Assembly (NCBI GenBank): GCA_964544585.1
Contig: CAZJBV010000007.1
Coordinates: 1-59,215, forward strand
From: an uncultured Gammaproteobacteria bacterium
GTDB lineage: Bacteria; Patescibacteriota; Microgenomatia; 2-02-FULL-39-11
Direction of reading: 5' to 3'
DNA length: 59,215 nt
Part shown: positions 3,962 to 54,695 of the stretch, piece after piece
Layout of the letters: each line of letters begins with the position of its first letter
How positions within the stretch are numbered: the first letter of the stretch is position 1
Notes under the pieces: model-generated
Database searches by the model: none
What the model was told of the DNA's origin: nothing
Seen by the model: only the letters and a program-made list of their open reading frames with translations
Program-made: the position numbers and the translations under genes

Positions 3962-6297
3962 AATACTCCTCTCGCATTCTTCACAAATGCAATAATCTTC
4001 TCGCTATCCTTTTTTCCATTAGTCTCCACTCCTCCTGCAACATCCACTGCAAAAGGCGCAACCCCCGCCACAATCCCTCCCACATTCTCCGGATTTAAAC
4101 CCCCGGCCAAAAAAATCGGATACTGCCTTGCCATATTTTTTGCATACTCCAGTGAAACCATCTTACCTTTCCCTTGTTCTTCCCTATCAACGAGAAAATA
4201 TGCCACAGAATATGAATCAGTTTTTCTTGCAGAAATCGTTTTTATCACCTGACAATCAATTTCATCGCAATAGTAAGGGCTCTCCTCTCCATGTAGTTGC
4301 ACAAAATCTAAATGAAGATTTTGCACAACATGATTTATATACGCTTTATTCTGATCTTGAAAAACTCCCACAAATTGTATTTTTCCAGAAAATGACAAAA
4401 TGATGCGTTTGGCCATATCTTCTGAAATACGCCTCTTCGAACTCGGCACAAAATTCAAGCCAATAAAATCTACACCGGCCTCAATACACATTTGTGCCTC
4501 CTCAACCGTTTTTATTCCACAGATTTTGATTTTAGTTTTCATAGTATTTAAGGGTCGGACCCTGAAGGGTCCGACCCTTTCCAAACTTTTCAACTTCTTT
4601 ATAAGTTTTGCCGGGTCGTCCGATTTCATCAATATAGTTCCAACCAAAACCCCTTTTGCCCCAGCTTTTTTATACCTTTCGATATCACGAGCTTCTTTCA
4701 CTCCTGAAAACGCAAGCGCCGTATGCGTTTTGGGAATTTTTCCTAGTATTTCACATGCTTTTTTCCTGTCAATTGAAAAATCGTCCAAATTGCGAGAATT
4801 GACAGCAACAATCTCCACCCCCGTCTTCAATGCACCTATTAACTCCTCCTCTGTATTCACTTCCACCACCGGCTCCATCCCCAATGCTTCTACCAATTTG
4901 ACCAATTGGACTAATTTGTCCAATGATAATATCTTCGCAATCAACAAAACAGCGTCCGCCCCATTCTTTTTTGCCTTATAAATCTGATCTTTACTTACAA
5001 CAAAGTCTTTACAAAGAATAGGTAAAGTAGTTAAATTCCTCACAAAGGAGAGTAACTCATAGCTTCCGCCAAAACGTTTTTTATCAACCACAACCGACAG
5101 ACAATCTGCCTCCCCCTTTTCATATGCAATTACTTTTCCTTTTACATCTCTCTTCTCTCCCAGTTTTCCTTCTGTTGGGGATTTTAGCTTTATCTCAGCA
5201 ATCAGCGAAGTATTACTATTTTTTGGATGCAAAATAGCATTACGAAATTTATTTCTATTTTGTGAAAAAGATATGAATGTCTCCAATACTTTTTTGGCTC
5301 TTCCTGAATCTATAGACTTCTTCGCCATCAAAATGCCCTCGTCAATAGTCTTTGCTTTTCCGGAAACATACAATGCTAGGGCACTATTGAAAATGACAAT
5401 ATCTCTTCTCCCTCCCTGCCTGCCGGCAGGCAGGCCTCTCTCTCCATCTAAAATTGACTTTATTATGGCTGCATTCTCTTTCGCATCCCCACCATGTATA
5501 AAATTATTTTTTTCATATTTAAATCCATATTTTTTAGGATCAAGAATATATTTTTTTGCCTTTTTTCCTTTTACTTCAAAAACATGGGTCTTTGCCAAAA
5601 CACTCACCTCATCGAGCCCATCCTCACTCGTAAGAATCAAAAGGTGCTCATACCTCAAACGAGCTGCAACGCGTGAAAGTTTCTCGGCAATCTCCAAATT
5701 CGGAACCCCTATTATCTGTCTTTTTACCCCTGCCGGATTCACCAATGGACCCAAAAAATTAAATATCGTCCGAATTCCCAATTCTCTACGTACAAGCGAA
5801 ACATGTTTCATCGCCGGATGATAAAGTGGAGCAAAAAGGAAAGTTATTCCTACTTCCTTCAAACACCTCATTACCTGCGCAGCCGTTAGCATTATATTTA
5901 CTCCCATTGCCTCCAAAACATCAGCACTTCCGCTCTTACTGCTGGCGGCTCGATTTCCATGTTTAGCAACCGCAACCCCTGCGCCTGTTACTACAAACGC
6001 CGTCGCCGTCGATATATTAAATGTCCCCTTTCCATCTCCTCCCGTCCCACACACATCTATTGCTCCCGCCCCAATCGGCATCTTCACCATTCTCCTCCTC
6101 ATTGCTTTTATAAAACCTATGATTTCTTCTTCTGTCTCTCCCTTCATTCGTAAACCAGTCAATAAAGAAGCAATCTGTACCCCTGTCAGGTTTCCTTGCA
6201 ATATTTCCCCCATCAACATCTCTGCCTGTCTGATAGTAAGGTTTCTTGTACTAAGTACGGTATTTAAAAATTGTGTAATTGAAAATTGAGATTTCAT
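3958..6297 (-). CDS. trpD/trpC/trpF: Triple fusion: anthranilate phosphoribosyltransferase (TrpD) - indole-3-glycerol-phosphate synthase (TrpC) - phosphoribosylanthranilate isomerase (TrpF)
   Basis: TrpD: DVCGTGGDG, AKHGNR, SGSADVLE; TrpC: IAEIK..SP, KDF, GADAVLLI, N.RNL; TrpF from internal Met at 4542: KIKICGI, QLHGEE, LAGGL, VDVAGGVE; one continuous 779-aa frame. Confidence 0.93.
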   Translation of the reverse strand: MKSQFSITQFLNTVLSTRNLTIRQAEMLMGEILQGNLTGVQIASLLTGLRMKGETEEEIIGFIKAMRRRMVKMPIGAGAIDVCGTGGDGKGTFNISTATAFVVTGAGVAVAKHGNRAASSKSGSADVLEAMGVNIMLTAAQVMRCLKEVGITFLFAPLYHPAMKHVSLVRRELGIRTIFNFLGPLVNPAGVKRQIIGVPNLEIAEKLSRVAARLRYEHLLILTSEDGLDEVSVLAKTHVFEVKGKKAKKYILDPKKYGFKYEKNNFIHGGDAKENAAIIKSILDGERGLPAGRQGGRRDIVIFNSALALYVSGKAKTIDEGILMAKKSIDSGRAKKVLETFISFSQNRNKFRNAILHPKNSNTSLIAEIKLKSPTEGKLGEKRDVKGKVIAYEKGEADCLSVVVDKKRFGGSYELLSFVRNLTTLPILCKDFVVSKDQIYKAKKNGADAVLLIAKILSLDKLVQLVKLVEALGMEPVVEVNTEEELIGALKTGVEIVAVNSRNLDDFSIDRKKACEILGKIPKTHTALAFSGVKEARDIERYKKAGAKGVLVGTILMKSDDPAKLIKKLKSLERVGPFRVRPLNTMKTKIKICGIKTVEEAQMCIEAGVDFIGLNFVPSSKRRISEDMAKRIILSFSGKIQFVGVFQDQNKAYINHVVQNLHLDFVQLHGEESPYYCDEIDCQVIKTISARKTDSYSVAYFLVDREEQGKGKMVSLEYAKNMARQYPIFLAGGLNPENVGGIVAGVAPFAVDVAGGVETNGKKDSEKIIAFVKNARGVL
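4550..4579. repeat. Perfect 14-bp-arm inverted repeat at the trpC/trpF junction
   Basis: aagggtcggaccct-ga-agggtccgaccctt. Confidence 0.9.
5414..5434. repeat. 21-bp 'PAGRQ' palindromic element, in frame in trpD
   Basis: ccctgcctgccggcaggcagg; encodes LPAGRQG. Confidence 0.9.
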
Positions 6298-6312: not shown

Positions 6313-6333
6313 CCTGCCTGCCGGACAGGCAGG
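6313..6333. repeat. 21-bp 'PAGRQ' palindromic element, intergenic, inside a TGAAAAT heptamer array
   Basis: cctgcctgccggacaggcagg. Confidence 0.85.
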
Positions 6334-12692: not shown

Positions 12693-12721
12693 TTTCCGAC
12701 AATCCTTTTTCTCCAAAACTG

Positions 12722-12793
12722 TGGGCCTGCTTGGGATCGAACCAAGGACATCCAAATTATAAGTTTGGCGCTCTGCCACTGAGCTACAGGCCC
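12722..12793 (-). tRNA. tRNA-Ile(UAU); CCA not encoded
   Basis: 72-nt cloverleaf: GGGCCUG/CAGGCCC, anticodon arm CCAAA-CUUAUAA-UUUGG, T-arm CUUGG-UUCGAUC-CCAAG. Confidence 0.93.
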
Positions 12794-15692: not shown

Positions 15693-15711
15693 GTCCCGAT
15701 TTATTCGGGAC
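15693..15711. repeat. Palindrome of the 'cccga..tcggg' family
   Basis: gtcccga-tttat-tcgggac; relatives at 8588-8605 and 18644-18662. Confidence 0.7.
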
Positions 15712-16153
15712 TGGTACTGGGGGTATATTGCACTCGCATAATTTTTCCGTGAATTACTTTCAAAGTTAAATGTGCCTTTTTAAGCTTTCGTATACACCAT
15801 TCAGCTAACCATCGTAAAGCTGAATATACCTGCGCATGTAGTCCAGAAACAACTTGTTGATCAGAAATAGGCAGAACAATTGCCGCTTGCCCCGTTGTCG
15901 TAACTGGAGTACTTGGTCCAGATGGCGAAACCCCCATCCTTTGTAAATCAGGCGGAACTTTAACAGCTTCCTCATGTGCGTATACCCCTACTCCCTTTAC
16001 CTCTTTTGACGGCTGTAATTCAGGGGAAACTGACTGTAACACCTCTTGAGAAGAGACACCTCCGCCTAACTGCTCTTTCGCCATAGAACCTGACGGAGAA
16101 ATCGCCGCAGGTGTCTGAGATTGTTGACTATTTTGCTGGGCAGAATTATCCAT
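15701..16153 (-). CDS. Hypothetical protein (S/Q/P-rich N-terminus, conserved-looking C-terminal helix)
   Basis: ORF track 156 aa; probable start at Met 16153; C-terminal SALRWLAEWC.RKLK. Confidence 0.65.
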   Translation of the reverse strand: MDNSAQQNSQQSQTPAAISPSGSMAKEQLGGGVSSQEVLQSVSPELQPSKEVKGVGVYAHEEAVKVPPDLQRMGVSPSGPSTPVTTTGQAAIVLPISDQQVVSGLHAQVYSALRWLAEWCIRKLKKAHLTLKVIHGKIMRVQYTPSTSPE

Positions 16154-18539
16154 ACATTTGCTCCCGTACATGTATTATAGATTCAAAAGAGGAGGGAGAC
16201 AAACGGTTAGCCTTCTCATAGGAAAAAATAATTCCATAACTCGGGAATTTTTTTCCTGCCTGCCCATTCGGAAGAACGGTCTGTGGTCTCTTCTGGTTCA
16301 AGCCATTCCTCCTTAATAAAAATTCAACACTCCCTGGCTTTTTCTTCCTTTTTAAGAAATGTTTTTTCGAGAAAGTTTTAGAAACCGACTCAATTTTAAG
16401 TTGCTTAAAAATACTTTTCAGTTTGCTAATAAAATATATAATTTTCTCAAAATCACCATTAAGAGAAATTATCATTCTTCCCTTCTTCAAAAGGCTTTTC
16501 TTCTGAATACTATTTACGTTAGAAGTATAAGTTTCATATTTTCTAAAATATTTCCTCTCCATTGTAAAAATGAATTTCAATACACTCATAGTCATAATTC
16601 TTTCTTTTAGCCAACCTTTTTCTAATCGACGTATATGTTTCCGGACCATTTTTTCTATATAAACTGTAGTTTTTTTAGTAATTCTGCCTTTTTTAAAATC
16701 TCTATATTGCTTGCTTTCTTTTCCATACAAAAGTAAAATCCATCTTCTAAGCTCCCTCTTCCCCTGCAAAATAGAAGATCTATCTTTTGAAACTCGTCTC
16801 CGCATCGTCTCTAAAAATTTCAACAATTTTCGTTGAGTTCGAAGAACTCTCAACACTCTCCTTTCTCGCTTCTTTATTTCTTTTTTAATATAGTTAACAG
16901 TCTTTTCTATAAATTTATATGGATTGGTCACAAATTCCTTAAAACGCCTTTTTTCTCTTCGTATAATTGTCTTTATTAATTCTTTCTTCGGCTGCAAAAA
17001 TTTACCTCTCTCCACCTTTTCCACAGATAATCTTTCTCGTCTCTGATATCTAATTCTCTGCTTCTTTGCTTCAAGCTTGGATACAACTTTTTTACCTTCC
17101 AAAGACCCCGAGGCAAAAGCCGTAGTTATATAATTTTTCAAAAGGCGATCTTTACCTGTAGGAACTTTTCTAGCAGTAGAAATAAATATCGTCTCCTTTC
17201 TCTTCCCCTTTCTTTGACTAAATCCGTCCAAAACTTCCTGAGAGAATATTTTTAATGAAGATTTACTGAAATCTCTTTTCTTCGCTTCCTTGGGCACAAA
17301 TATACTCTGCGAAGAAATACTACCATTTCTATGTAAGGGGCGATGTGCATTATAAATTTTACCCTTTATATCAGCAATTATAGCCAATCCTACTTCTTCG
17401 GCCTTTAATTTCCCTTTTCTTGGAATTATTTCTATCCCCGCAATCTTTTGCTCTGCCAATCTCCTCCAATATCTAAATCCTCTCCCACCAGAATGACCCC
17501 GATGCCGTTTTATTGGCTTGGTCAAATCCCTAAAACCTGAGTGATAAAGCGCTATTGGCTTTTCGGCAACTGCTTTAGATCGTGATTTCACTAAAGCAAT
17601 ATTTTCCCTTTCAGTAATTTTATGTCCAGTTGTTTTTACGGCAGACTGTTCTTTTTCATCCAATTGTCTTGCCCACGTCGCCAAACTCTGTCCGATTGTT
17701 CCTAAAGCATCTTGAGTACTCTTCTCATTAAGCAATTTTTGAACTTCTTTTCTTATATATCGTTCTTGTGCTGCAATATTCCTATCCCGTATCTCCTCTG
17801 GCATTTGAGCTTCATTTATAAGACGATGAATAGTTGGAGCAAATGCCTTTCTTTCTTCAATACTCAAACGATCAACATAAGTCAAAACAACATCCTCAAG
17901 TTTAAGATCGTCCTCCCCTTTTCGGCTATCTCGGACTACGACCACGTCTTTGATATTGCCATTTCGATCATGAGTCTTACCGGAAAATGCATCCAGAAAA
18001 TTCCACATGGAATCCATATCCTTATGTTGCAATTGTAAAGAGTACAGTTCTCCAGAATCTTTACCATCGTGTCTTGCAATATACATTCGATCACTACCAT
18101 CGCCTTCGGGACTAAACCAAATTACATCGCCATTTGTTCTATAAATAGTATCTGCAATCCCACCTATTCTCTTTCGAAGTAGTCCATTTTCTTCCAAAGA
18201 ATTAATAACATCTTCATAAGATCTATTCGCTTCATGTGCAAAATATACCGTATCTTTGAGAATCTTCTCCCCTGTCACTACATCGGTAACAATAGCTTTT
18301 CCTGTCCTAAAAGGCACTTTATCAATTTTTAAACCCTGTCCCTGCTGTCTATAAAATTCATTTACTTCCGTTCTCGCATTAACAGTCAATGAATCAATCG
18401 CCTGACGCCGCGACATTACTTTATTGTTATACAATCCCTCACCAATAGCCCGAGCAGTTCTACCCACATTAAAACCATGTTTGTCCAACTTTCCTGGTAT
18501 TCCTCCTGGCATGCCCCCGGGAGCTTCTGCATTCATCAT
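16146..18539 (-). CDS. Large hypothetical protein with a very Lys/Arg-rich C-terminal half
   Basis: 797-aa open frame directly downstream of the B12 riboswitch terminator. Confidence 0.7.
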   Translation of the reverse strand: MMNAEAPGGMPGGIPGKLDKHGFNVGRTARAIGEGLYNNKVMSRRQAIDSLTVNARTEVNEFYRQQGQGLKIDKVPFRTGKAIVTDVVTGEKILKDTVYFAHEANRSYEDVINSLEENGLLRKRIGGIADTIYRTNGDVIWFSPEGDGSDRMYIARHDGKDSGELYSLQLQHKDMDSMWNFLDAFSGKTHDRNGNIKDVVVVRDSRKGEDDLKLEDVVLTYVDRLSIEERKAFAPTIHRLINEAQMPEEIRDRNIAAQERYIRKEVQKLLNEKSTQDALGTIGQSLATWARQLDEKEQSAVKTTGHKITERENIALVKSRSKAVAEKPIALYHSGFRDLTKPIKRHRGHSGGRGFRYWRRLAEQKIAGIEIIPRKGKLKAEEVGLAIIADIKGKIYNAHRPLHRNGSISSQSIFVPKEAKKRDFSKSSLKIFSQEVLDGFSQRKGKRKETIFISTARKVPTGKDRLLKNYITTAFASGSLEGKKVVSKLEAKKQRIRYQRRERLSVEKVERGKFLQPKKELIKTIIRREKRRFKEFVTNPYKFIEKTVNYIKKEIKKRERRVLRVLRTQRKLLKFLETMRRRVSKDRSSILQGKRELRRWILLLYGKESKQYRDFKKGRITKKTTVYIEKMVRKHIRRLEKGWLKERIMTMSVLKFIFTMERKYFRKYETYTSNVNSIQKKSLLKKGRMIISLNGDFEKIIYFISKLKSIFKQLKIESVSKTFSKKHFLKRKKKPGSVEFLLRRNGLNQKRPQTVLPNGQAGKKFPSYGIIFSYEKANRLSPSSFESIIHVREQMYG

Positions 18540-18546
18540 AATAAAT

Positions 18547-18570
18547 AAAAACCCTCTCTCTCGAGAAGGT
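18547..18570 (-). terminator. Intrinsic terminator of the cobalamin riboswitch expression platform
   Basis: ACCUUCUC-GAGA-GAGAGGGU followed by UUUUAUUU. Confidence 0.75.
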
Positions 18571-18625
18571 TAACCCACAACTTTCTTTCTCCTGCTCGGG
18601 ATAATCCACCTATTTCTGGCGAAAG

Positions 18626-18725
18626 AGGCTAGTTCCCGGCTTCCCCCCGATTTAATCGGGGGATCACGGTTGCGGCACAGTCCTTGATTCCCACAAGGTT
18701 CCTACGTCCTCTTCCAAACTATATC
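18626..18725 (-). promoter_or_regulatory. Cobalamin (B12) riboswitch
   Basis: UAGUU...AGGAA-CCUUG-UGGGAAU-CAAGG-ACUGUGCCGCAACCGUGA-[hairpin]-AGCCGGGAACUA; follows the B12-element order (T-loop hairpin, GCAAC kissing loop, AGCCRG box; UAGUU pairs with AACUA). Confidence 0.8.
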
Positions 18726-19244
18726 CCCCACTCCATGTTTCCAATTCAACCATCGCCCAATTATAAATAAAACATCAGACAATCTATTAAAGTATACCAA
18801 AATATTAGAATCTATATTTTCTTCTTTAGAAAGCTGTACCAACTTCCTTTCTGCCCGCCTGACAACACTTCTAGCAAAATGAGCAGTCGCTGAATCCGCT
18901 CTTCCTCCTGGTAGAATAAAATTCCTAAGTTCCGGCAGATCACCATCCAAACCATCAATAAATTGTTCAAAAGAGTTTACTCTCCTTTTCAAAATAGAAA
19001 TGTCTTCATTGGCACCCGCAAGCACCGCCCCAATCTTAAAAAGATCCTTTTGTACGGAAAGTAAAAACTCTTTTATTACTTTGTCGTCGCAAAAAGCTAT
19101 TACCATTCCCAAAACGCTGTTCAATTCATCCACAGTTCCATACGCCTCAACCCGTAAAGAATCTTTCCCAGTTCTTTTTCCACCATAAAGCGAAGTTTCA
19201 CCGCGATCCCCAGTTCGGGTATAGATTTTGACTCTTGAAGACAT
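18702..19244 (-). CDS. pduO: ATP:cob(I)alamin adenosyltransferase, PduO type
   Basis: KIYTRTGD.GET.L..G.R..K...RVEAYGTVDELNS; FILPGG; RSVVRRAER; YFNRLSD. Confidence 0.95.
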   Translation of the reverse strand: MSSRVKIYTRTGDRGETSLYGGKRTGKDSLRVEAYGTVDELNSVLGMVIAFCDDKVIKEFLLSVQKDLFKIGAVLAGANEDISILKRRVNSFEQFIDGLDGDLPELRNFILPGGRADSATAHFARSVVRRAERKLVQLSKEENIDSNILVYFNRLSDVLFIIGRWLNWKHGVGDIVWKRT

Positions 19245-19251
19245 AGAAAAA

Positions 19252-19340
19252 GATATTAAGTGCAAAAGATACTAAGATAGTAAGTGCAATATTAATTTTA
19301 TCTCTTAATATCTCAATATCCTAATATCTTAATATCTCAT
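19252..19340. repeat. Inverted GATA/TATC arrays (8-nt period) between nrdJ and pduO
   Basis: GATA at 19252/19268/19276 with taagtgca twice; TATC at 19299/19309/19317/19325/19333. Confidence 0.7.
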
Positions 19341-21734
19341 CTAACATTCCGAGTATCCACAGGCGTAGCATTTTTTGCATCCTTCCTCATAGGCTAAAGA
19401 GGCTTCCCCACACGAAGGACACAAATCAAAATCAGAAGCTGCAGCCGGCAATAACTGCTGCGTCATTACCGATACCGGTTTTACTTCCTGTTTCAGCTCT
19501 ATTTTTACCTCAGAGGAAATCTGAGAACCATTCCCATTTTTAAGGGCAAAATTAAGATGCATCGCCAAAGCCTTGGCTACAGCATCGGGCAAAGAACGCA
19601 CTCTCTTTTCCCCAAATCCCAAAGACTTCGACCCTCCAATCCCTATCAGCTGATTAAATACCTGTTTTGCCCGCTCTTTGGGCGAAAGAGGCGACGCCAC
19701 CCTCAGCATCGCTGAAATTACTCTTCCCAATGCCTCAGCCATCGCCGCCACATCAGACCCTGCCTTCCCTACATTGATAAAAACTTCCAAAGGCTCATTA
19801 TTACCATTGGTATTTATAGTCACAAATGCAGTCCCGACAGGCGTATCAATCTGGTATGTTGCCCCTGAAACCATCATTGGTCTTGGCTTAATTTCAGGTA
19901 CGACAACCGTTTCCCCGTTTGGTTTTGCCATCTGCTTTTCCTCCCTGCTTGCCCGTCCGGCAGGCGGGCCTGCCGGCAAGGCAGGCTTTTTAGCATCAGT
20001 TCTCTCCAAAACTCCAGGACGCGACCCTTCTCTCATGTAAGTCACACCCTTACAACCCAATTCATACGCCAACGTATACAATTTCTTTACATCTTCTACC
20101 GTATGATTATTAGGAGCATTAACTGTTTTTGAAATCGAGGCATCAACATGACTTTGAATCGCCGCCTGCACCTTCACATGATCCTCCGGCGTCAGATCAT
20201 TAGCCGACACAAAATATTCAGGTACTGGATCGCGAGGATTTGCCTTTTTCCATTCGTCAAACAGAGGATGATAAAGAATATGCTCTCCCAGTCGATCGCG
20301 TCTTATAAACGAAAATTCATAAACAGGTTCAATCCCCGACGTAGTCCCGGAAAGTAATGAAGTCGATCCCGTCGGTGCCTGCTGTGTCAAAATCGAGTTT
20401 CTTATCCCCCACTTCAACATTTTCTTTCTCAAAGACTCAGGCAGTTTTTTGATAAAGTAGCCTTGTAGATATTTTTTCTTATCAAACTTGGGAAAAACAC
20501 CTTTTTCTTTGGCAATTTCGATAGATGCTTCATACACCGAATCGCGAATTAGCTTATAAATTTTATCTATTACCCTAATTGACTCATCAGAACCATATCT
20601 CAATTTCATCTTAATAAGCGCATCCCCAAGTCCCATCGTTCCCACTCCAATTCTTCTTTCCCCCTCCAATTGCACTTTACGAATTTCGTCAAAAACATAT
20701 ACGTCAGCATCAACTACATTATCTTGAAATCTCACCGCCACTTTTGCCGTTTCAGATAGACCCTTGTAATCCATTTTCCCATCCTTCACAAACTGAGAAA
20801 GATTAATAGATCCCAAATTACAAACCCCCCAAGGTGGAAGTCCCTCTTCACCGCACGGATTTACACAATTTACTTTCTCCCAATACCAATTGTTAAACCA
20901 TTTATTGTATCTCTCCATAAATACCACTCCCGGTTCAGCAGATCCCCATGCCGCATCACAAATCAAATCCCACATTTTTCTTGCCGAAACTCTTTTTGTT
21001 ACCTTTACCTTTCCTCCCTTTTTCACCCATTCATCTAAATCTCCATCCCACTCGCTATCATACTTAGGATCTGAAATATCAGGAAACTTCAATTCCCATT
21101 CCGCATCTTTTTTGACTGCCGCCATAAACTTGTCAGATACACACACAGAAAGATTGGCACCAGTAATTCTAGTCAAATCCCTCTTTACCGTTATAAATTC
21201 TTCCACATCTGGATGCCAATCCCAAAGCATAAGCATTAAAGCGCCTCTCCGACTCCCCCCTTGCTGAATAATATCTTTTGTCGCAACACTAAAAAGTTCT
21301 GCCCAATTACATGGTCCCGAAGAATGTCCATTTACTTTTCGCACATATGCTCCTCTTGGTCTCAAAGATGAAAGATTTATTCCTACCCCACCACCCCTTG
21401 CCATAATCTCCACCATCTGTGAAAGCGTTTTCAATATTCCTTCCCGAGAATCATGCGGTGAAGGAATGACAAAGCAATTATAAAAAGTCACTTTTGTTCT
21501 TGTTCCCGCCCCAGCCAAAATCCGACCCCCAGGAACATACTTAAAATCTTCCATCGCTTTGTAAAACCTTTTCTCCCAAGTGTTCCTCTCACCCTTCGTC
21601 GTCTCCACTTCAGAAACTGCAGCAGCCACTCTCCTCCACATTTCTTCCGGAGTCTTTTCCACAGGCTGTCCTTTATCGTTTTTGAGTGCATAGCGGTCAA
21701 GAAAAACTTGTTCCCGTATTCCAGTAAGTTTCAT
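19341..21734 (-). CDS. nrdJ: Class II (AdoCbl-dependent) ribonucleotide reductase with C-terminal TSCPD/Zn-ribbon region
   Basis: PGGRILAG, YNCFV, GGGVG.NLS.LRP, NPCGE, CNLGSINL, APTGS, ISKTVN, terminal CPSC...C..CGYSEC. Confidence 0.95.
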   Translation of the reverse strand: MKLTGIREQVFLDRYALKNDKGQPVEKTPEEMWRRVAAAVSEVETTKGERNTWEKRFYKAMEDFKYVPGGRILAGAGTRTKVTFYNCFVIPSPHDSREGILKTLSQMVEIMARGGGVGINLSSLRPRGAYVRKVNGHSSGPCNWAELFSVATKDIIQQGGSRRGALMLMLWDWHPDVEEFITVKRDLTRITGANLSVCVSDKFMAAVKKDAEWELKFPDISDPKYDSEWDGDLDEWVKKGGKVKVTKRVSARKMWDLICDAAWGSAEPGVVFMERYNKWFNNWYWEKVNCVNPCGEEGLPPWGVCNLGSINLSQFVKDGKMDYKGLSETAKVAVRFQDNVVDADVYVFDEIRKVQLEGERRIGVGTMGLGDALIKMKLRYGSDESIRVIDKIYKLIRDSVYEASIEIAKEKGVFPKFDKKKYLQGYFIKKLPESLRKKMLKWGIRNSILTQQAPTGSTSLLSGTTSGIEPVYEFSFIRRDRLGEHILYHPLFDEWKKANPRDPVPEYFVSANDLTPEDHVKVQAAIQSHVDASISKTVNAPNNHTVEDVKKLYTLAYELGCKGVTYMREGSRPGVLERTDAKKPALPAGPPAGRASREEKQMAKPNGETVVVPEIKPRPMMVSGATYQIDTPVGTAFVTINTNGNNEPLEVFINVGKAGSDVAAMAEALGRVISAMLRVASPLSPKERAKQVFNQLIGIGGSKSLGFGEKRVRSLPDAVAKALAMHLNFALKNGNGSQISSEVKIELKQEVKPVSVMTQQLLPAAASDFDLCPSCGEASLAYEEGCKKCYACGYSEC
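19944..19985. repeat. 42-bp nested 'PAGRQ' element, in frame in nrdJ
   Basis: cctgcttgcccgtccggcaggcgggcctgccggcaaggcagg; removing it gives KKEEK. Confidence 0.88.
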
Positions 21735-21750: not shown

Positions 21751-22197
21751 TTAAATTAATTTATAAAGTTCCTTCTTAAAATCCTCCACATCCAAAAACC
21801 TTCGAAACACAGACGCAAATCGTATATATGCAATCTTGTCAATTTTTTTAAGTTTTGTCGCCGTAATCTGCCCGATTTTTTTACTATCCACCTCCACACT
21901 ATCCATTCCCCGTAACTCCCTCTCTACCTCATCAACTATTTTCTCTATCTCCTCAATCCCAACTGTCGTCTTCTCGCAAGCCTTCAATATTCCATTTTTA
22001 AGTTTATCCCTGGAAAACTGTTCCTTCCTCCCATCTTTCTTCATCACAATTATCGGTACCGTCTCTATCCTTTCATATGTCGTAAACCTCTTCCCGCATT
22101 TTATACACTCTCTTCTTCGCCGCGTTGTAGACAGGTCCTCATTATCCCTTGTTTCTACGACCTCTGTATCAAGATTCTCGCAATATGGACACTTCAT
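21751..22197 (-). CDS. nrdR: Transcriptional repressor NrdR
   Basis: MKCPYC, RRRRECIKCGKRFTTYER, ATP-cone, AYIRFASV. Confidence 0.97.
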   Translation of the reverse strand: MKCPYCENLDTEVVETRDNEDLSTTRRRRECIKCGKRFTTYERIETVPIIVMKKDGRKEQFSRDKLKNGILKACEKTTVGIEEIEKIVDEVERELRGMDSVEVDSKKIGQITATKLKKIDKIAYIRFASVFRRFLDVEDFKKELYKLI

Positions 22198-22272
22198 AAA
22201 ATTCTTGGCAAATAATCCCAAAAATCATCGATTTAGCGCATAAAAAACACGCTTTTTGCGTGAACTCATTAT

Positions 22273-30727: not shown

Positions 30728-31838
30728 CTCTAAAATTGTAACTTCAGAAGGCTTGACGTTTGACGACGTCCTTATTTTGCCGGACTATACAGATACCAAA
30801 CGCCAGGACATTTCTCTCAAAACCCGCCTTACCCCAAAAATTTCCCTCGAGATTCCTATCCTCTCCTCTCCCATGGATACAGTCACAACTGCACCTATGG
30901 CATTAAGTCTCGCCAAACTTGGCGGTATAGGCTTTATCCATCGAAACCTAACAATAGACCAACAAGTAGAAGAAATAAAAGTCGTCAAAACAGGTAATCA
31001 TATGGTCGGCGCAGCAGTCGGCGTCGGCCGCGACCTCGAAGAACGCGTCGCCAAAATAGTTGCCGTCGATGTCGACATAATTTTAGTCGATTCCGCCCAT
31101 GGCTTTTCTAAATGGGTCATCGAAGCCATAGAATTCATTTCGGGAAAATATCCAAATATAGAAATTATCGGAGGAAATATCTCCACAAAAGAAGCCGCCG
31201 AAAAACTCATCGAGGCAGGCGCCAAAGCCCTCCGGGTCGGTATGGGCCCGGGATCAATCTGTACCACCAGAGTCATCTCCGGCATGGGTGTCCCCCAAAT
31301 TACCGCCATCATGGAAGTCTACGCTGTGGCCAGAAAACATGATATTCCCATTATCGCCGACGGCGGTATTAAAAGTTCTGGGGACATTACCAAGGCATTA
31401 GCCGCTGGTTCAGATACGGTCATGCTCGGCTCTCTTCTAGCCGGCGCCGACGAAGCTCCCGGCGAAAAAGTAACCCTGCCTGCCCGTCCGGCAGGCGGGC
31501 CTGCCGGCAGGCAGGGCATAAAAGGCAAAGAATTTAAAAGATATAGAGGCATGGGCTCGGTTGCCGCCATGAAAGAAGGCGGCGCCGCCCGCTACGGCCA
31601 AGAATACGTCAAAGGCAAAGAAAAAACATTAATAGAAGAAGGCGTCGAGGGTCTCGTTCCCTACAAAGGCAGCCTCAAAGACGTCATCATCCAGCTAACA
31701 GGCGGCCTTCGCACCGGTATGTATTACGCCGGAGTAAAAAATATCGAAGAACTCAAAACCAAAACCAAATTCCTAAAAATCACCCAAAGCTCTTTAATCG
31801 AAAACTACCCCCAAGATATCATCATTCAGCAAAAATAA
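30714..31838 (+). CDS. guaB: IMP dehydrogenase (no CBS subdomain)
   Basis: [48 protein letters not shown]. Confidence 0.93.
31475..31516. repeat. 42-bp nested 'PAGRQ' element, in frame in guaB
   Basis: cctgcctgcccgtccggcaggcgggcctgccggcaggcaggg; removing it gives KVTIKGK. Confidence 0.9.
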
Positions 31839-44940: not shown

Positions 44941-45567
44941 TTATTTTAACTGAGTAAACCTCCTCTCCACCTCTCTCCAATTCACTACATTCCACCAAGC
45001 CTTAATATAATCAGCCCTCCTGTTTTGATATTTAAGATAATACGCATGTTCCCAAACATCTACACCTAAAATCGGAGATTTACCCTGCCTGCCGGCAGGC
45101 ACGGCTTCCATCCAAGGATTATCCTGATTAGGTGTGTCAGTAATCGACAGTTTCCCAACATCTGAAATAAGCCACGCCCATCCGCTTCCAAATCGTCCAA
45201 TACCAGCTTTAGAAAAAGCCTCTTGAAACTTGGCAAAATCTCCAAACGTACTTTTTATCGCCTCTGCAACCCTTCCGCTAGGTTCTCCCCCTTTTTTCGG
45301 CCCCATTATCTGCCAAAAAAAGCTATGGTTTATATGCCCTCCCCCATTATTTCTGACTTTCGTTCTCACCTCGGCAGACACCTGATCCAAATTCTTCATC
45401 AATTCCTCCGGTGACATATTCAGAAATTTGTCTTGCCCCTTCAAAAACTCATTTAAGTTTGTCACATAGGCCCCGTGATGCTTGTCATGATGAATTTTCA
45501 TCGTCTGCTCATCAATATAAGGCTCCAAAGCGTTATACGCATAAGGCAATTCAGGTAATGTAAACAT
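44941..45567 (-). CDS. sodA: Fe/Mn superoxide dismutase
   Basis: [47 protein letters not shown]. Confidence 0.96.
45084..45104. repeat. 21-bp 'PAGRQ' element, in frame in sodA
   Basis: cctgcctgccggcaggcacgg; removing it restores MEGK. Confidence 0.9.
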
Positions 45568-47606: not shown

Positions 47607-47679
47607 AAGCCGAATCTATATATTTTAGCATAGGATAGGTCTTTCTATCATATTGCTCAAATCTGCTACAATTACGTCT

Positions 47680-49902
47680 ATGCAATTTCGCTTTACTAGG
47701 TTCAAAAAAAAATACTTAATTATATTTACCTTCTTTTTATTGCTGGTGGTACTCTACTATATTTTTATCCTCAAAGACCTACCCTCCCCCGAAAAACTTG
47801 GCCGCTACGAAGTGCCCCAAACCACCCTCATTCTCGATCGAAATGGAAAACTTCTCTATGAACTTTTTACCGGTGAAAATAGAAAGCTCGTCAAACTCAA
47901 AAATATTCCAAAATCAGTTCAAGAGACTACTATCGCCATAGAAGACAAAGATTTCTATCGTCATCAAGGCATAAACCCAGTCGGCGGAATTTTAAGGGCC
48001 ACCTCCCAAATCGTCCTCAAGCGTCAACTCCAAGGCGGTTCAACTATAACCCAGCAGTTAATTAAAAGTGCCCTTTTAACACCAGAAAGGACAGTGGTTA
48101 GAAAAATAAAAGAGATAATCTTAGCTTTCTGGGCAGAAAGGTTATATACCAAAGATGAAATTTTGGAAATGTATCTAAATCAAGTTCCCTATGGCGGTAC
48201 AGCCTGGGGAATAGAAGCTGCCTCAGAAACCTACTTTGCTAAAAACGTCAAAGATTTAAGTTTGGCTGAAGCAAGTTTATTAGCCGGTCTTCCCGCAGCC
48301 CCCACTCTATACTCACCTTTTGGTGCTCATCCAGAGTTGGCTAAACAAAGACAAAAAGAAGTCTTAACTAGAATGGTCGAAGATGGCTATATCTCAAAAA
48401 AGGAAGCAGATCAAGCTTTCAAACAAGAACTACAATACGCTCCTCAAACCACCAATATCAAAGCTCCTCATTTTGTCATGTATGTAAAGCAAGCTTTAGT
48501 CGACAAATACGGCGATAAACTTGTGGAGCAAGGAGGCCTAAAAGTCACCACTACTCTCGATCTATCCTTTCAGGAAGAAGCTCAAAAAATCGTCCGCGAC
48601 GAAATAGAAGACCTCGCCCGCTACGACGTGGGTAACGGCGCAGCTCTAGTCACCAGACCCCCAACCGGTGAAATCCTTGTTATGGTTGGCTCCAAAGACT
48701 ACTTTGCCTCCGATTCTGGCAATTTCAATGTCACTACTTCCCTTCGCCAACCTGGGAGCGCTTTCAAACCGATAAATTATGCCATAGCATTAGAAAATAA
48801 AAAAATTACCCCCGCCACCCTTTTTCTTGATACACCTACATGCTTTCTCGTCGCCGGCCAAAAACCCTATTGTCCTGTCAATTATGATGGCAATTTCCAC
48901 GGTCCAGTCCAGACCCGCTTTGCCCTCGGCAACTCATACAATATCCCCGCCGTCAAAACCATGGCCATAAATGGCGTCAAAGACGTCATTGCTTCATCCT
49001 CAGCCATGGGAATAACCTCATTCAAAGATCCATCTCGTTATGGCCTCTCTCTCACTCTCGGTGGCGGCGAAGTTTCCATGCTCGACATGGCCACGGCCTT
49101 CGGCGTCTTTGCCAATACCGGTATTAGAAAAGATCTAGTTGCCATCCTCAAAGTAGAAGACAGAAATGAAAAAGTCCTTGACCAGTTCCAGGATCCCAAT
49201 TTTATCAAAGATATCACTACCCTTCTTTCCGCTCCTTCCTCTATCCTTATCAATGGTCCCAGAGTCCTCTCTCCCGAAACCTCATTTCTCATTTCCCATA
49301 TTCTTCTGGATAATAATGCCAGGTCTTCTGCCTTTGGTACATCCAATCAACTCGTTATCCCAAATAAAGCCGTCTCTGTCAAAACAGGCACTACAGACGA
49401 TAAAAGGGATAATTGGACTATTGGTTTTACGCCTAATTTCTTAACAGTTGTTTGGGTGGGAAATAATGACAATTCACCCATGAATCCCTATCTTGCCTCC
49501 GGTATAACTGGTGCTGCCCCCATCTGGAATGGAATCATGCGTCAAACCGTTAAAAACCAACCCGACCTCTGGCCTAAACAACCGTCAGGCATCGTCGGCG
49601 CCCAAGTCTGTTCACTCACAGGCCAATCTACCCCCAATCCGCCCATTTCCGGCGGAGATCCCAACGCTCCCGATCAAGGCTGTCAAACCCGTTTTGAATA
49701 CTTCATCAAAGGCACAGTTCCCCAAAACCCCGAAGTACTTCGCCAACACATACTCATAGACAAAGCAACAGGTCAACCAGCCTCCCCTAGTCAAACCGAA
49801 AATACCGAAATGCAAGAACACCAAGTCATAAAAGACATGTTTGGCATCCTTTGCCTCGACTGTCCCGGAGGCAATCCTCCTCCTACCAATGTCCGCCTCT
49901 AA
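47680..49902 (+). CDS. Class A penicillin-binding protein (PBP1A family), copy 1
   Basis: EDKDFYRH, QGGSTITQQL, RKIKE, MYLNQ; RQPGSAFKP (SxxK), SYN, KTGT. Confidence 0.94.
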   Translation: MQFRFTRFKKKYLIIFTFFLLLVVLYYIFILKDLPSPEKLGRYEVPQTTLILDRNGKLLYELFTGENRKLVKLKNIPKSVQETTIAIEDKDFYRHQGINPVGGILRATSQIVLKRQLQGGSTITQQLIKSALLTPERTVVRKIKEIILAFWAERLYTKDEILEMYLNQVPYGGTAWGIEAASETYFAKNVKDLSLAEASLLAGLPAAPTLYSPFGAHPELAKQRQKEVLTRMVEDGYISKKEADQAFKQELQYAPQTTNIKAPHFVMYVKQALVDKYGDKLVEQGGLKVTTTLDLSFQEEAQKIVRDEIEDLARYDVGNGAALVTRPPTGEILVMVGSKDYFASDSGNFNVTTSLRQPGSAFKPINYAIALENKKITPATLFLDTPTCFLVAGQKPYCPVNYDGNFHGPVQTRFALGNSYNIPAVKTMAINGVKDVIASSSAMGITSFKDPSRYGLSLTLGGGEVSMLDMATAFGVFANTGIRKDLVAILKVEDRNEKVLDQFQDPNFIKDITTLLSAPSSILINGPRVLSPETSFLISHILLDNNARSSAFGTSNQLVIPNKAVSVKTGTTDDKRDNWTIGFTPNFLTVVWVGNNDNSPMNPYLASGITGAAPIWNGIMRQTVKNQPDLWPKQPSGIVGAQVCSLTGQSTPNPPISGGDPNAPDQGCQTRFEYFIKGTVPQNPEVLRQHILIDKATGQPASPSQTENTEMQEHQVIKDMFGILCLDCPGGNPPPTNVRL
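48026..48485 (+). repeat. 460-bp segment identical to 50511-50970 (the two PBP1A paralogues)
   Basis: Compared by eye; no mismatch found at offset 2485. Confidence 0.9.
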
Positions 49903-49948: not shown

Positions 49949-52126
49949 ATGGTCGATCTCATCCTCACTATCCTTATCCTTCCGCCGTATTTATTAAAAA
50001 AAATCGGCGACGGCGTAATTCTCATCTTTCAAAATATCATCAAAAAAGCCAAAATTCCCCCCACTAAGGTTGTCTTTGCCCCCAAAAAACCTCTAACTCT
50101 GCCCAAAATTTCTCTACCATCAATTAGCCTCCCTCACATTCGTATCACACTCCCCGAGATAAAAACTCCCCCCATCTCTCTTAAAATTAAATACTTCGCC
50201 ATCGGAGCTCTTTTTACTATAATTTTTGTATTCATTCCTTACAATTTTTATATCCTCATTTCATCCCTTCCCAATCCGCAAACATTGACCATAAGAAATA
50301 TTCCCGTCACCACCAAAATCTTTGATCGCCACGGTAGCCTCCTTTATGAAATCTACGCCGACCAAAATAGGACTCCCATCGCCCTTAGCCAAATTCCTGA
50401 TACCATCAAAAAGGCTACTATTTCGATAGAAGACCAAGATTTTTATCGCCATTATGGGTTTTCCGCCAGAGCCATAACCAGGGCCCTGCTTGTCGATCTT
50501 CAAGGCGATAAACTCCAAGGCGGTTCAACTATAACCCAGCAGTTAATTAAAAGTGCCCTTTTAACACCAGAAAGGACAGTGGTTAGAAAAATAAAAGAGA
50601 TAATCTTAGCTTTCTGGGCAGAAAGGTTATATACCAAAGATGAAATTTTGGAAATGTATCTAAATCAAGTTCCCTATGGCGGTACAGCCTGGGGAATAGA
50701 AGCTGCCTCAGAAACCTACTTTGCTAAAAACGTCAAAGATTTAAGTTTGGCTGAAGCAAGTTTATTAGCCGGTCTTCCCGCAGCCCCCACTCTATACTCA
50801 CCTTTTGGTGCTCATCCAGAGTTGGCTAAACAAAGACAAAAAGAAGTCTTAACTAGAATGGTCGAAGATGGCTATATCTCAAAAAAGGAAGCAGATCAAG
50901 CTTTCAAACAAGAACTACAATACGCTCCTCAAACCACCAATATCAAAGCTCCTCATTTTGTCATGTATGTCAAGGAGCTACTTGAGAAAAAATATGGCAC
51001 CCGGTTAGTAGAACAAGGTGGACTACGTGTCACCTCTAGCCTAGATCTTCCCCTGCAAACAAAGGCAGAAGAAATAGTTAACAAGCAAATAGTACAACTA
51101 CAAGGATTAAGAGTCGGAAACGGCGCCATCCTGGGCACCAATCCCAAAACGGGTGAAATTCTCGCCATGGTTGGCAGCAAAGACTATTTTGACCTTGAAC
51201 ATGATGGCAACGTCAACGTCACTACCTCTCTTCGTCAACCAGGATCCGCCATTAAAGTCGTAAATTATGCCGCCGCCCTAGAACGAGGCTATACTGCCGC
51301 CTCCATCCTCGATGATTCTCCAGTCTCCTACGCCTTACCCGGACAACCTCCCTATTCTCCCGTCAATTATGACGGCAGATTCCATGGCAGAATTCCCCTG
51401 CGTCTTGCACTAGCCAATTCTTACAATGTCCCCGCCGTTAAAGTTTTAGCCTCTCTTGGCGTTACCACTATGATTGATAAAGGTAAATCAATGGGTATCA
51501 CATCTTGGGAAGGACAAGAAAATCGCTTTGGCCTCTCCCTTACATTAGGCGGCGGAGAGGTCACCATGCTCGAAATGGCCAAAGTCTACGGAACACTTGC
51601 CAATAAAGGTCTCACCACAGAACTCCATCCCATACTCGAAGTCACAGACTATCGAGGATCCGTCCTCGAAAATAATGCCAGTGGACAATCTTCTCAAATT
51701 ATCTCTCCAGAAGTTGCCTTTATTCTTTCCGATATTCTCTCTGACAATCATGCACGCTCACAAGCATTCGGCACCAACTCCGCCCTCAATATATCTGACA
51801 AAGCAGTCGCCGTCAAAACGGGCACCACCAATGACAAAAAAGATAATTGGACCATCGGTTTTACTCCCTCCTATGTCGTCGTAACTTGGGTAGGCAACAA
51901 CGACGGCACCCCCATGCATCCACAACTCACTTCAGGCATAACCGGCGCCGCCCCTATCTGGAGAGAAATGATGCTCACTATTTTAAAAAACCGTCCCAAT
52001 GAGTCATTTCTCAAACCAAACAATATTGTCTCAATCCCTTGTTATGGAAAAATTGAACATTTTGTAAAAGGTACCGAACCAAAAAGAGGCTGCGCCCCAC
52101 TCCCAACACTCTCCCCCACTCCATAA
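49949..52126 (+). CDS. Class A penicillin-binding protein (PBP1A family), copy 2
   Basis: EDQDFYRH, QGGSTITQQL; RQPGSAIKV (SxxK), SYN, KTGT. Confidence 0.94.
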   Translation: MVDLILTILILPPYLLKKIGDGVILIFQNIIKKAKIPPTKVVFAPKKPLTLPKISLPSISLPHIRITLPEIKTPPISLKIKYFAIGALFTIIFVFIPYNFYILISSLPNPQTLTIRNIPVTTKIFDRHGSLLYEIYADQNRTPIALSQIPDTIKKATISIEDQDFYRHYGFSARAITRALLVDLQGDKLQGGSTITQQLIKSALLTPERTVVRKIKEIILAFWAERLYTKDEILEMYLNQVPYGGTAWGIEAASETYFAKNVKDLSLAEASLLAGLPAAPTLYSPFGAHPELAKQRQKEVLTRMVEDGYISKKEADQAFKQELQYAPQTTNIKAPHFVMYVKELLEKKYGTRLVEQGGLRVTSSLDLPLQTKAEEIVNKQIVQLQGLRVGNGAILGTNPKTGEILAMVGSKDYFDLEHDGNVNVTTSLRQPGSAIKVVNYAAALERGYTAASILDDSPVSYALPGQPPYSPVNYDGRFHGRIPLRLALANSYNVPAVKVLASLGVTTMIDKGKSMGITSWEGQENRFGLSLTLGGGEVTMLEMAKVYGTLANKGLTTELHPILEVTDYRGSVLENNASGQSSQIISPEVAFILSDILSDNHARSQAFGTNSALNISDKAVAVKTGTTNDKKDNWTIGFTPSYVVVTWVGNNDGTPMHPQLTSGITGAAPIWREMMLTILKNRPNESFLKPNNIVSIPCYGKIEHFVKGTEPKRGCAPLPTLSPTP

Positions 52127-52151
52127 AATTTTCAACAATTTTGCATTTTGC

Positions 52152-52172
52152 CTGCCCTGCCGGCAGGCGGGC
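52152..52172. repeat. 21-bp 'PAGRQ' element inside an ATTTTGC heptamer array (52138-52193)
   Basis: attttgc attttgc [ctgccctgccggcaggcgggc] attttaa attttgc attttcc. Confidence 0.85.
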
Positions 52173-52741: not shown

Positions 52742-52887
52742 AAAGTCCAGAGATTCGGCAAACTGGTAAGAAGCGAGCTAAGGGGAGTATATGGTAAATA
52801 TACTTCTAGGAGATTCGAACCCTGCCTGCCTTGCCTGCCGGCAGGCTGGCCGGCAGGCAGGCAGTTGCAGCAGAATATATGGACTTG
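52742..52887 (+). ncRNA. Probable 6S RNA carrying a 42-nt palindromic insertion
   Basis: Closing stem AAGUCC/GGACUU; inner GCAA/UUGC pairing; terminal hairpin GGAGUAUA/UAUACUUC; 3' 'uucgaacc...uugcagcag...gga' resembles 6S 3' conserved blocks; -10 CATAAT at 52722. Confidence 0.55.
52821..52862. repeat. 42-bp nested 'PAGRQ' element in the putative 6S RNA
   Basis: cctgcctgccttgcctgccggcaggctggccggcaggcaggc. Confidence 0.85.
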
Positions 52888-54585: not shown

Positions 54586-54695
54586 AATTGGCGAGATCCC
54601 TTTTTTTGCGCGCACAGCGGCGGGCCCGGCCGTGCCGGGCAGTCGAGCCTGCCTGCCGGCAGGCAGGCACGGAAAAAAACGGGGTCGAGCCAATT
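54586..54695. mobile_element. 110-bp GC-rich MITE-like / structured element with terminal inverted repeats
   Basis: aattggc...gccaatt ends, gatccc-T7...A7-ggggtc stem, internal gcccggc-cgt-gccgggc hairpin and a 22-bp PAGRQ palindrome (54647-54668). Confidence 0.55.

Follow-up and report, generated by a model that had tools for sequence, protein, structure and literature searches.

A putative cobalamin riboswitch overlapping the end of pduO in a candidate phyla radiation genome

Organization of the locus

We analyzed a stretch of DNA of 59,215 nucleotides (nt) (contig CAZJBV010000007.1 of assembly GCA_964544585.1; hereafter, the window) and focused on a candidate cobalamin (B12) riboswitch that lies on its minus strand, between the adenosyltransferase gene pduO and a gene that we term X. 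All genes around the riboswitch are encoded on this strand: nrdR, nrdJ, pduO, X, an open reading frame (ORF) of 156 amino acids (aa), and a gene for a VirD4/TraD-like ATPase. The gap between pduO and X spans 162 nt and is filled by the riboswitch region. The initial annotation had placed the element at 18547-18725, downstream of nrdJ and pduO rather than upstream of them, and facing the next gene. These coordinates cover the element well, although we set its limits at 18540-18715, and the proposed orientation agrees with our analysis: the P13/L13 hairpin and a terminator/Shine-Dalgarno (SD) hairpin abut the AUG of X, and the synteny in relatives points the same way. The genes and the parts of the element are as follows.

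21751-22221, minus strand: nrdR, upstream operon partner
19341-21734, minus strand: nrdJ, class II (B12-dependent) ribonucleotide reductase, upstream operon partner
18702-19265, minus strand: pduO, PduO-type ATP:cob(I)alamin adenosyltransferase, given as the longest ORF with a TTG start; stop codon UAG at 18704-18702
18540-18715, minus strand: the whole putative riboswitch, comprising the aptamer, the J1/13 linker, P13/L13, and the terminator/SD hairpin with its U-run
18702-18715, minus strand: stretch with a double role, in which codons W184-K185-R186-T187-stop also supply the P1 5' strand, J1/3, and the P3 5' strand
18715-18708, minus strand: P1 5' strand GGAAGAGG, within UGG AAG AGG, pairing with 18628-18621; the minimum-energy fold of the isolated aptamer recovers this helix
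18707-18705, minus strand: J1/3, ACG, 3 nt
18704-18702, minus strand: P3 5' strand UAG, identical with the stop codon of pduO; the invariant GGAA begins with its last base, G18702
18698-18682, minus strand: P4 hairpin, CCUUG-UGGGAAU-CAAGG
18679-18671, minus strand: P5 with L5 UGCCG (18677-18673), the putative kissing-loop partner of L13, as read from the complementarity of the sequences
18669-18636, minus strand: P6, CCG (18669-18667) with CGG (18638-18636), enclosing loop 6
18662-18644, minus strand: P6-extension hairpin (a palindrome) in loop 6, with a stem of 8 base pairs (bp), -14.7 kcal/mol
18632-18630, minus strand: P3 3' strand CUA
18628-18621, minus strand: P1 3' strand CCUCUUUC
18620-18602, minus strand: J1/13 linker, 19 nt
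18601-18590, minus strand: P13/L13 hairpin UCC-CGAGCA-GGA; apart from one bulged A, L13 is complementary to L5
18571-18550, minus strand: terminator-like hairpin, with an SD-like 3' arm (GAGAGGG) and a U-run behind it at 18549-18540; the AUG of X begins at 18539
16146-18539, minus strand: X, 797 aa, the putatively controlled gene, with no Pfam/NCBIfam family and a lysine/arginine-rich C-terminal half

The pduO product matched PF01923 (6.6e-55, 186 bits, cut-off 24) and TIGR00636 (1.2e-56, 191 bits, cut-off 108), the latter over the entire model (1-171 of 171) along residues 15-185. The database version of the protein (P0001) starts at M8 and is 100% identical over its 180 aa. Its named relatives belong to Levybacteria and Gottesmanbacteria of the candidate phyla radiation (CPR), and a PduO scan of species genomes returned a single locus only, a distant one.

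Both genes directly upstream of the riboswitch are related to B12, nrdJ as a B12-dependent and pduO as a B12-activating gene. The order nrdJ-pduO-riboswitch was found in 28 of 129 sequences bearing the core pattern of the aptamer (128 loci and the window), and in syntenic relatives the aptamer follows pduO at an equivalent position. Judging from these sequences, the operon-internal layout is widespread in CPR-like contigs. A consensus scan of the minus strand from 19288 to 18565, crude as such scans are and with CPR promoters poorly known, predicted no sigma-70-like promoter. Since no promoter was predicted inside pduO and the aptamer starts within this gene, the riboswitch most likely resides on the nrdR-nrdJ-pduO message.

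The aptamer among known cobalamin riboswitches

The proposal that the element is a cobalamin riboswitch stood up to comparison with Rfam families, with a model built from relatives, and with syntenic relatives, which carry the same element, and the match exceeds what chance would give. RF00174 was the best-scoring Rfam family, with RF01482 and RF01689 lower still. The Infernal check against RF00174, which the initial annotation had suggested, gave a divided outcome: it matched 18610-18743 on the minus strand with E=1e-5 in a 701-nt stretch (E=8.6e-4 in the whole window), and the score of 29.9 bits fell below the gathering threshold of 31.5. We also built a covariance model, R1, from an alignment, A1, of 19 short-form relatives. 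Its single match in the window (18610-18728, minus strand, E about 1e-11) scored 51.4 bits, a value that is partly circular and to that extent counts less in favor of the assignment, because the seeds had been gathered via the core pattern taken from the window. The independent anchor for R1 is that the seeds are themselves certified by Rfam: in a re-scan at gathering thresholds 16 of 17 passed RF01689 and L029 (related loci are denoted by L and a number) passed RF00174 with 49.8 bits, while the remaining two seeds, L006 and L009, passed RF01689 separately (37.8 and 50.1 bits). L005 likewise passed RF00174 (35.0 bits); L003 scored 42.3 bits on RF01482 and L002 28.5 bits on RF00174. The sole large departure of the window from R1 is a 25-nt insertion in loop 6, and it is because of this insertion that the Rfam models fall short on the window. 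P3 has three pairs in the window and five in R1. If the assignment holds, genuine B12 riboswitches of CPR genomes escape detection at the standard thresholds of Rfam.

The window matches A1 at each of its 30 invariant columns and has every part of the conserved core: GGAA, GUG..AAUC in L4, CUGUGCCGCAAC, and the AAGYCSG..AAC "B12 box" region. Scanning metagenomes with the core pattern added 120 further loci. Across 104 matches, 93% of the cells in core helices P3-P6 were paired, compared with 68% in shuffles, and the covariation score, 0.615, exceeded those of shuffles (0.153) and of slid controls (no more than 0.161); 10 of 15 core pairs had changed on both sides. In P4, all four variable pairs covary (103 distinct cores), with all four Watson-Crick pair types occurring at four positions. 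The middle P6 pair covaries between GC and CG, and the P3 pairs covary across the class. When folded in isolation, the window aptamer forms P1, P3, and the P6 extension in its minimum-energy structure.

Further downstream, nearly all relatives keep the YCCCGAGCAGGR motif, and covariation is seen in their P13 stem (UCC/GGA, UCU/AGA, CCC/GGG, CGA/UCG). L5 (UGCCG) is complementary to L13 (CG(A)GCA) with one bulged A. This A is replaced by U in some relatives (CGUGCA), and the last base of L13 changes from A to G, still pairing with the first U of L5. The kissing loop of cobalamin riboswitches always contains unpaired nucleotides, and L13 must sit on a stem-loop (PMC5028336); the putative L5/L13 contact in the window, with its bulged A, fits this rule.

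Judged by its core sequence and predicted helices, the aptamer is a member of the cobalamin clan (Rfam CL00101), even though the formal Rfam threshold was missed. Its predicted architecture is intermediate between class II and class I: the P2 arm is missing, J1/3 is short, and P6 bears one hairpin only. With class II (RF01689, AdoCbl-II or "AdoCbl-variant"; env8 structure 4FRN), it shares the missing P2 arm, the four-way junction of P3-P6, conserved nucleotides, a J1/3 separating P1 from P3, a putative L5-L13 kissing loop with unpaired nucleotide(s), and GGAG in P13 (PMC5028336). It differs from this class, whose P6 is short with a small loop and whose J1/3 makes a T-loop-like turn, in its 19-nt loop 6 hairpin (about 7 nt in the consensus), its J1/3 of 3 nt, its J1/13 linker of 19 nt, its coding 5' strands, and a score below RF01689 gathering. 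Moreover, its output would come from a distinct terminator/SD hairpin, located about 20 nt downstream, rather than from a ribosome-binding site in L13. With class I (RF00174), it has in common a B12-box-like AAGCCGGGAACUAGCC and a P6 with an extension. It lacks, however, the P2 arm and the long P7-P11 extension, which in class I buttresses the adenosyl pocket (PMC7367189); in their place it has one hairpin only, and it scores below the 31.5-bit gathering threshold.

Mixed peripheral arrangements around a conserved core are also seen in the "atypical" cobalamin riboswitch of Bacillus subtilis yvrC, for which ligand selectivity is not readable from class alone (PMC7367189). The yvrC element has a large P2 arm and a normal 5' leader, whereas the window element has neither. 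Owing to the intermediate architecture, the ligand preference (adenosylcobalamin versus methylcobalamin or hydroxocobalamin) cannot be called (PMC6158498, PMC7367189). The literature that we searched, a limited collection, contained no paper on cobalamin riboswitches in CPR/Patescibacteria.

Two observations concern other members of the class. The orthologous aptamer of L010 (4540-4720) is larger by three hairpins, of which one sits in loop 4 and the other two lie between P4 and P5, with its core and P13 preserved; it escaped Rfam altogether (E>1), and R1 aligned the 3' part only (42.4 bits). In addition, riboswitches of the same class occur in pairs approximately 0.5-1 kb apart in L030 (502-603 and 1076-1173), L058 (1210-1307 and 1773-1874), and L047 (1565-1686 and 2683-2781), and the second copy in L030 and L058 has an A-U pair in P5 and CGAGCG as L13.

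Expression platform and overlap with pduO

All relatives linked to X have a hairpin and a U-run immediately ahead of the AUG, and the 3' arm of this hairpin resembles GGAGG. As judged from its sequence, such a hairpin can both terminate transcription and mask the SD. We measured the complementarity of P13/L13 to the 5' arm and loop of the terminator in the 54 class members having such a hairpin and obtained a mean of -10.4 kcal/mol, compared with -6.6 kcal/mol for a shuffled 5' arm and -5.6 kcal/mol for the 3' arm. The window follows the same trend (-10.0 for 5' arm and loop versus -5.3). Similarly, 17 of the 54 have CUCG, the complement of CGAG in L13, in their 5' arm or loop and none has it in the 3' arm, and the minimum-energy folds of L005, L006, and L010 contain the pairing of P13/L13 with the 5' arm. 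Another candidate antiterminator, in which the P1 3' strand pairs with the 3' arm of the terminator, appeared when the platform was folded alone (-25.6 kcal/mol); it was lost once a few more bases were included and is absent in L009. Because of its class-wide support, the pairing of P13/L13 with the 5' arm is preferred. We also rejected a leader peptide that would start at a UUG 8 nt after the GGAG of P13 and run for 14 codons to a UGA overlapping the AUG of X (AUGA). L003, L005, L006, and L009 have no equivalent ORF, and the amino-acid likeness to L003 only mirrors the conserved terminator hairpin.

We propose the following mechanism. The element would be transcribed as part of the nrdR-nrdJ-pduO message, with nrdJ and pduO made regardless and read-through into X gated by B12. 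Without B12, the P13/L13 strand (CCCGAGCAGG) would anneal to the loop and 5' arm of the hairpin that follows (CCUUCUCGAG); the terminator would not form, the SD-like 3' arm would be free, and transcription and translation would continue into X. With B12, the four-way junction would fold, closed by P1 and P3, and L5 would capture L13 through a kissing contact above the corrin. Closure of the hairpin at 18571-18550 would then lead to termination at the U-run and hide the SD. The element is thus likely to be an operon-internal OFF switch. Overall, we estimate a probability of roughly 75% that this is a functional cobalamin riboswitch of a class-II-like short architecture with a simple P6 hairpin extension, which sits inside the operon between pduO and X and acts as an OFF switch.

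Several findings weigh against this interpretation. At gathering thresholds, Rfam reported two tRNAs only and no riboswitch family over the whole window. The J1/3 of only 3 nt is at odds with the importance that this loop is given in class II (PMC6158498). We saw no covariation between L5 and L13; L5 is fixed by the search pattern and was invariant in the few extra matches. In the window, blocking the P1 3' strand makes no difference to the terminator, which is present in the minimum-energy fold either way, and since the terminator persists in equilibrium folds, the antiterminator would be thermodynamically weak and would have to act during transcription. The complementarity of P13/L13 is weaker in L003 and L009. 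Finally, X has no known link to B12, and the sequencing runs that contain the window sequence are groundwater metagenomes, which are DNA only and offer no transcript support.

The other central claim of the initial annotation, that the 5' strands of the aptamer are encoded by the last codons of pduO and its stop, was borne out for P1, J1/3, and P3 alike. The minus-strand 3' end of pduO reads GAU AUA GUU UGG AAG AGG ACG UAG (D-I-V-W-K-R-T-stop); the P1 5' strand lies in codons W184-K185-R186, J1/3 is the codon of T187, and the P3 5' strand is the stop. The TIGR00636 model extends to K185, and the overlap consequently involves conserved domain residues and not a free tail. Coding 5' strands with a stop codon as a helix strand, as predicted here, are unusual but, among these tiny genomes, a recurrent way to save space; our literature search on aptamers overlapping an upstream coding sequence found nothing specific. 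The nearest published concept is the B12 riboswitch of Mycobacterium tuberculosis metE (PMC11260477), where ribosomes likewise translate part of a B12 aptamer and translation and folding compete. There, however, the translated frame is a short upstream ORF starting inside the leader, whereas in the window a full-length enzyme gene contributes its 3' end, conserved domain residues included, and its stop would serve as a helix strand.

To place this overlap among relatives, we used the distance from the pduO stop to the GGAAY core. The values were 30, 26, 26, 25, 25, 24, 24, 23, 16, 12, 10, 8, 3, 1, -1, and -14 nt, where -1 represents the window and L002, and -14 represents L116, whose stop UAA lies within loop 4. 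At the mode of 24-26 nt the aptamer begins right after the stop with no overlap, and below about 12 nt helices become coding. Overlap recurs in distinct lineages with different PduO sequences (L079, L060, L042, L116, and L063/L114). P1 and P3 were read from the printed sequences, as automatic duplex folding was unreliable for L002, L075, and L113.

Comparison with individual relatives suggests how the overlap arose. L009 also ends in IWKRT*, yet its stop lies 26 nt before the core. Since this ending is shared with the non-overlapping L009 and the TIGR00636 model reaches K185, the protein end appears to be ancestral, and the aptamer would have moved into pduO. The counterpart in L003 reads …UGG AAG AAA UAA, followed by 24 nt to the core GGAAC (a spacer, CUAUAGAGGG, and UAUA). 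Relative to L003, we infer a 22-nt loss between two AGA triplets, after which P1 was re-paired from CCUCUAUAG to CCUCUUUC. L002, whose PduO is 79% identical, shares the fusion and has a perfect P1 (GGAAGAGG/CCUCUUCC). As the genome was compacted, the aptamer and the ancestral stop would have come together through the loss of about 22 nt, the coding sequence would have become the 5' strand, and the 3' strand would have adapted.

Given that the stop-to-core distances form a recurrent, graded continuum, the overlap seems to be tolerated compaction rather than a fixed design or a designed coupling, and genome compaction is its most likely cause. It would constitute a natural case of one RNA under a double constraint, specifying a conserved enzyme end with its stop as well as the two closing helices of an aptamer. 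The codons have evidently been matched by changes in the 3' strand, and the arrangement may inform us on the limits of riboswitch compression and on interference between ribosomes and aptamers. From the geometry it follows that ribosomes finishing pduO cross the aptamer; a regulatory consequence of this is hypothetical.

One such consequence would be that ribosomes translating and terminating at the end of pduO open both P1 and P3 while covering P4, with read-through into X set by B12 together with pduO translation or ribosome traffic. The geometry itself is certain (the stop is the P3 5' strand and codons 184-186 hold the P1 5' strand), overlap recurs in the lineages listed above, and in M. 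tuberculosis metE translation of a short ORF inside the B12 aptamer alters expression (PMC11260477). Nevertheless, the spread of distances from +30 to -14 nt, with its mode lacking overlap, looks like drift under compaction and not like a selected register, and the DNA runs, the only ones to hold the sequence, carry no information on whether transcription is coupled to translation in these organisms; we regard this coupling of functions as unlikely. A more elaborate scheme would have the ribosome-gated riboswitch integrate B12 and PduO synthesis, and its targets, X (a new fold), the 156-aa protein, and the VirD4/TraD-like ATPase, act as an apparatus that takes corrinoids from a host cell. This scheme is quite unlikely; if true, each ribosome terminating at the pduO stop would reset the aptamer, and the downstream gene set would be CPR-specific. 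The overlap could also exist at the DNA level only, if the riboswitch had its own promoter inside pduO and the regulated transcript were never translated across the aptamer. Since the aptamer starts approximately 0-30 nt from the pduO stop in all relatives, such a promoter would need to lie within the coding sequence clade-wide, which is possible, and the crude consensus scan could overlook a CPR promoter. The scan nonetheless predicted no site, and the tight nrdR-nrdJ-pduO-riboswitch synteny over many lineages fits one transcription unit, which makes a separate promoter an unlikely explanation as well. We further considered that the element might be a relic in decay, unable to bind B12 any longer after being inactivated by the deletion that reached into pduO and by losing a normal J1/3. 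The Rfam score below gathering, the 3-nt J1/3, and a P6 extension sharply different from that of the closest relative, L002, would agree with decay. Against it, all invariant core positions are intact, P1, P3, P4, P5, P6, P13, and the terminator can form, and L002 shows the same fusion with the P1 3' strand changed in step (CCUCUUCC), such that the arrangement has persisted to 79% PduO identity. A relic is therefore highly improbable.

A further alternative concerns the loop 6 hairpin, which the initial annotation had viewed as a possible case of repeat exaptation, a dispersed CCCGA...TCGGG palindrome recruited as the P6 extension. The hairpin (CCCCCGAUUUAAUCGGGGG, 18644-18662) does exist and is among the stronger loop 6 hairpins of the class. 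CCCGA-N-TCGGG palindromes occur three times in the window versus 0.16 expected, which makes for a very small family, the copy at 15695-15709 is one loop base off the hairpin of the aptamer, and L002 has a quite different, long AU-rich extension. Yet most class members have a loop 6 hairpin flanked by URA and AAGY, whose stem varies freely and is compensated across dozens of relatives, so a hairpin at this site is the rule of the class. The hairpin of L003 differs, and the pair GAAUCUACCAAUUUGGUGGAAAG (L003) and GAUCCCCCGAUUAAAUCGGGGGGAAG (window) fits descent by substitution. The palindrome occurs six times in 130 related loci, never inside an aptamer. Furthermore, the window contains 141 hairpins of six bp, and by a rough estimate one near-identical pair is not far from chance; the real repeat family of the window is GCCTGCCGGCAGGC. 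The exaptation claim found no support in these data, and recruitment of a repeat is unnecessary as an explanation and very unlikely.

Downstream genes and other hairpins of the window

X matched no family in Pfam or NCBIfam, and a word-indexed protein search gave no matches. An exhaustive HMMER search among 1.84 billion clusters recovered 12 representatives only, and the X profile found nothing among the sequences of the PDB. A single-sequence AlphaFold model was unusable (predicted local distance difference test, pLDDT, 39.5). The N-terminal domain, modelled with an alignment, reached a pLDDT of 78 and a predicted template modelling (TM) score of 0.76, and this model had no fold match in the PDB (best E 0.02, TM about 0.1). 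According to the profile, the riboswitch is followed by X in the window and in L003 to L009, L093, and L042; the profile does not detect the other families found downstream of the riboswitch. X proteins have a long lysine/arginine-rich middle and a conserved motif at the extreme C terminus (FPSYGIIFSY in the window). The C-terminal residues of the unrelated-looking proteins are GVIFAFAS in L026 and AVIFAYGS in L079.

Genes for DUF4430 and DUF6580 proteins come after X in L010, and in L116 such genes stand directly after the riboswitch; the downstream products of L029 and L112 look similar by eye. Transcobalamin-type binders have DUF4430 as their C-terminal domain (PMC4350170), and by this analogy a role of the DUF4430/DUF6580 genes of relatives in B12 uptake is plausible. 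In other lineages (L052, L063, L075, L113, L122, L060, and L043), the first gene after the riboswitch encodes a protein of 280-400 aa that belongs to no Pfam family, contains a W-[IV/Y]-S-P motif, and has a CxxC...CxxC zinc ribbon at its C terminus; in L075 it is followed by a ThyX-like gene. A W-x-S-P-like motif is seen in X by eye only, with no profile link to the 280-400-aa proteins. If the riboswitch works as proposed, it would mark X and the W-x-S-P/zinc-ribbon families as B12-responsive, giving a lead on B12 acquisition or economy in cofactor-auxotrophic, host-dependent bacteria.

The dominant GC-rich palindromes of the window, which has 40% GC, are of the GCCTGCCGGCAGGC type. They are often tandem or nested and occur in both coding and non-coding sequence, at the following positions.

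5415-5435: GCCTGCCGGCAGGC palindrome
6314-6333: GCCTGCCGGCAGGC palindrome
19957-19986: GCCTGCCGGCAGGC palindrome, inside nrdJ
31478-31515: GCCTGCCGGCAGGC palindrome
45084-45101: GCCTGCCGGCAGGC palindrome
52150-52168: GCCTGCCGGCAGGC palindrome
52836-52855: GCCTGCCGGCAGGC palindrome
54647-54669: GCCTGCCGGCAGGC palindrome

Similar hairpins, CCGCC(A/G)GC(C/U)GGCGG, lie in the riboswitch linkers of L006 and L047. The palindrome GTCCCGATTTATTCGGGAC at 15693-15711, one base off the P6-extension hairpin, spans the stop of the 156-aa ORF; as it lacks a U-run, it is not an obvious terminator. Long AU-rich hairpins of UAG/CUA-rich repeats (UUAGAUAUUAGA..., GUAGUGAGUAG...CUACUAACUAC) are present in L002 (3592-3680), in L005 (853-905), and in the linkers of L003, L005, and L006. 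In these close relatives they serve as P6 extensions and as inserts between P13 and the terminator, and they may represent an expanding hairpin element.

Elsewhere in the window, the strand opposite the tRNA at 12722-12793 (minus strand) gave a sub-threshold match at 12721-12793 to RF04354 (Plastid-ycf2 5'UTR; 49.9 bits, gathering 65.7), which is almost certainly an artefact of the tRNA-like sequence. Identical pairs of hairpins, TTAAAAGTGCCCTTTTAA and CTTTCTGGGCAGAAAG, occur at 48062-48140 and 50547-50625, about 2.5 kb apart. They lie inside adjacent ORFs of 749 aa (47653-49902) and 725 aa (49949-52126), which suggests that these two are tandem paralogues.

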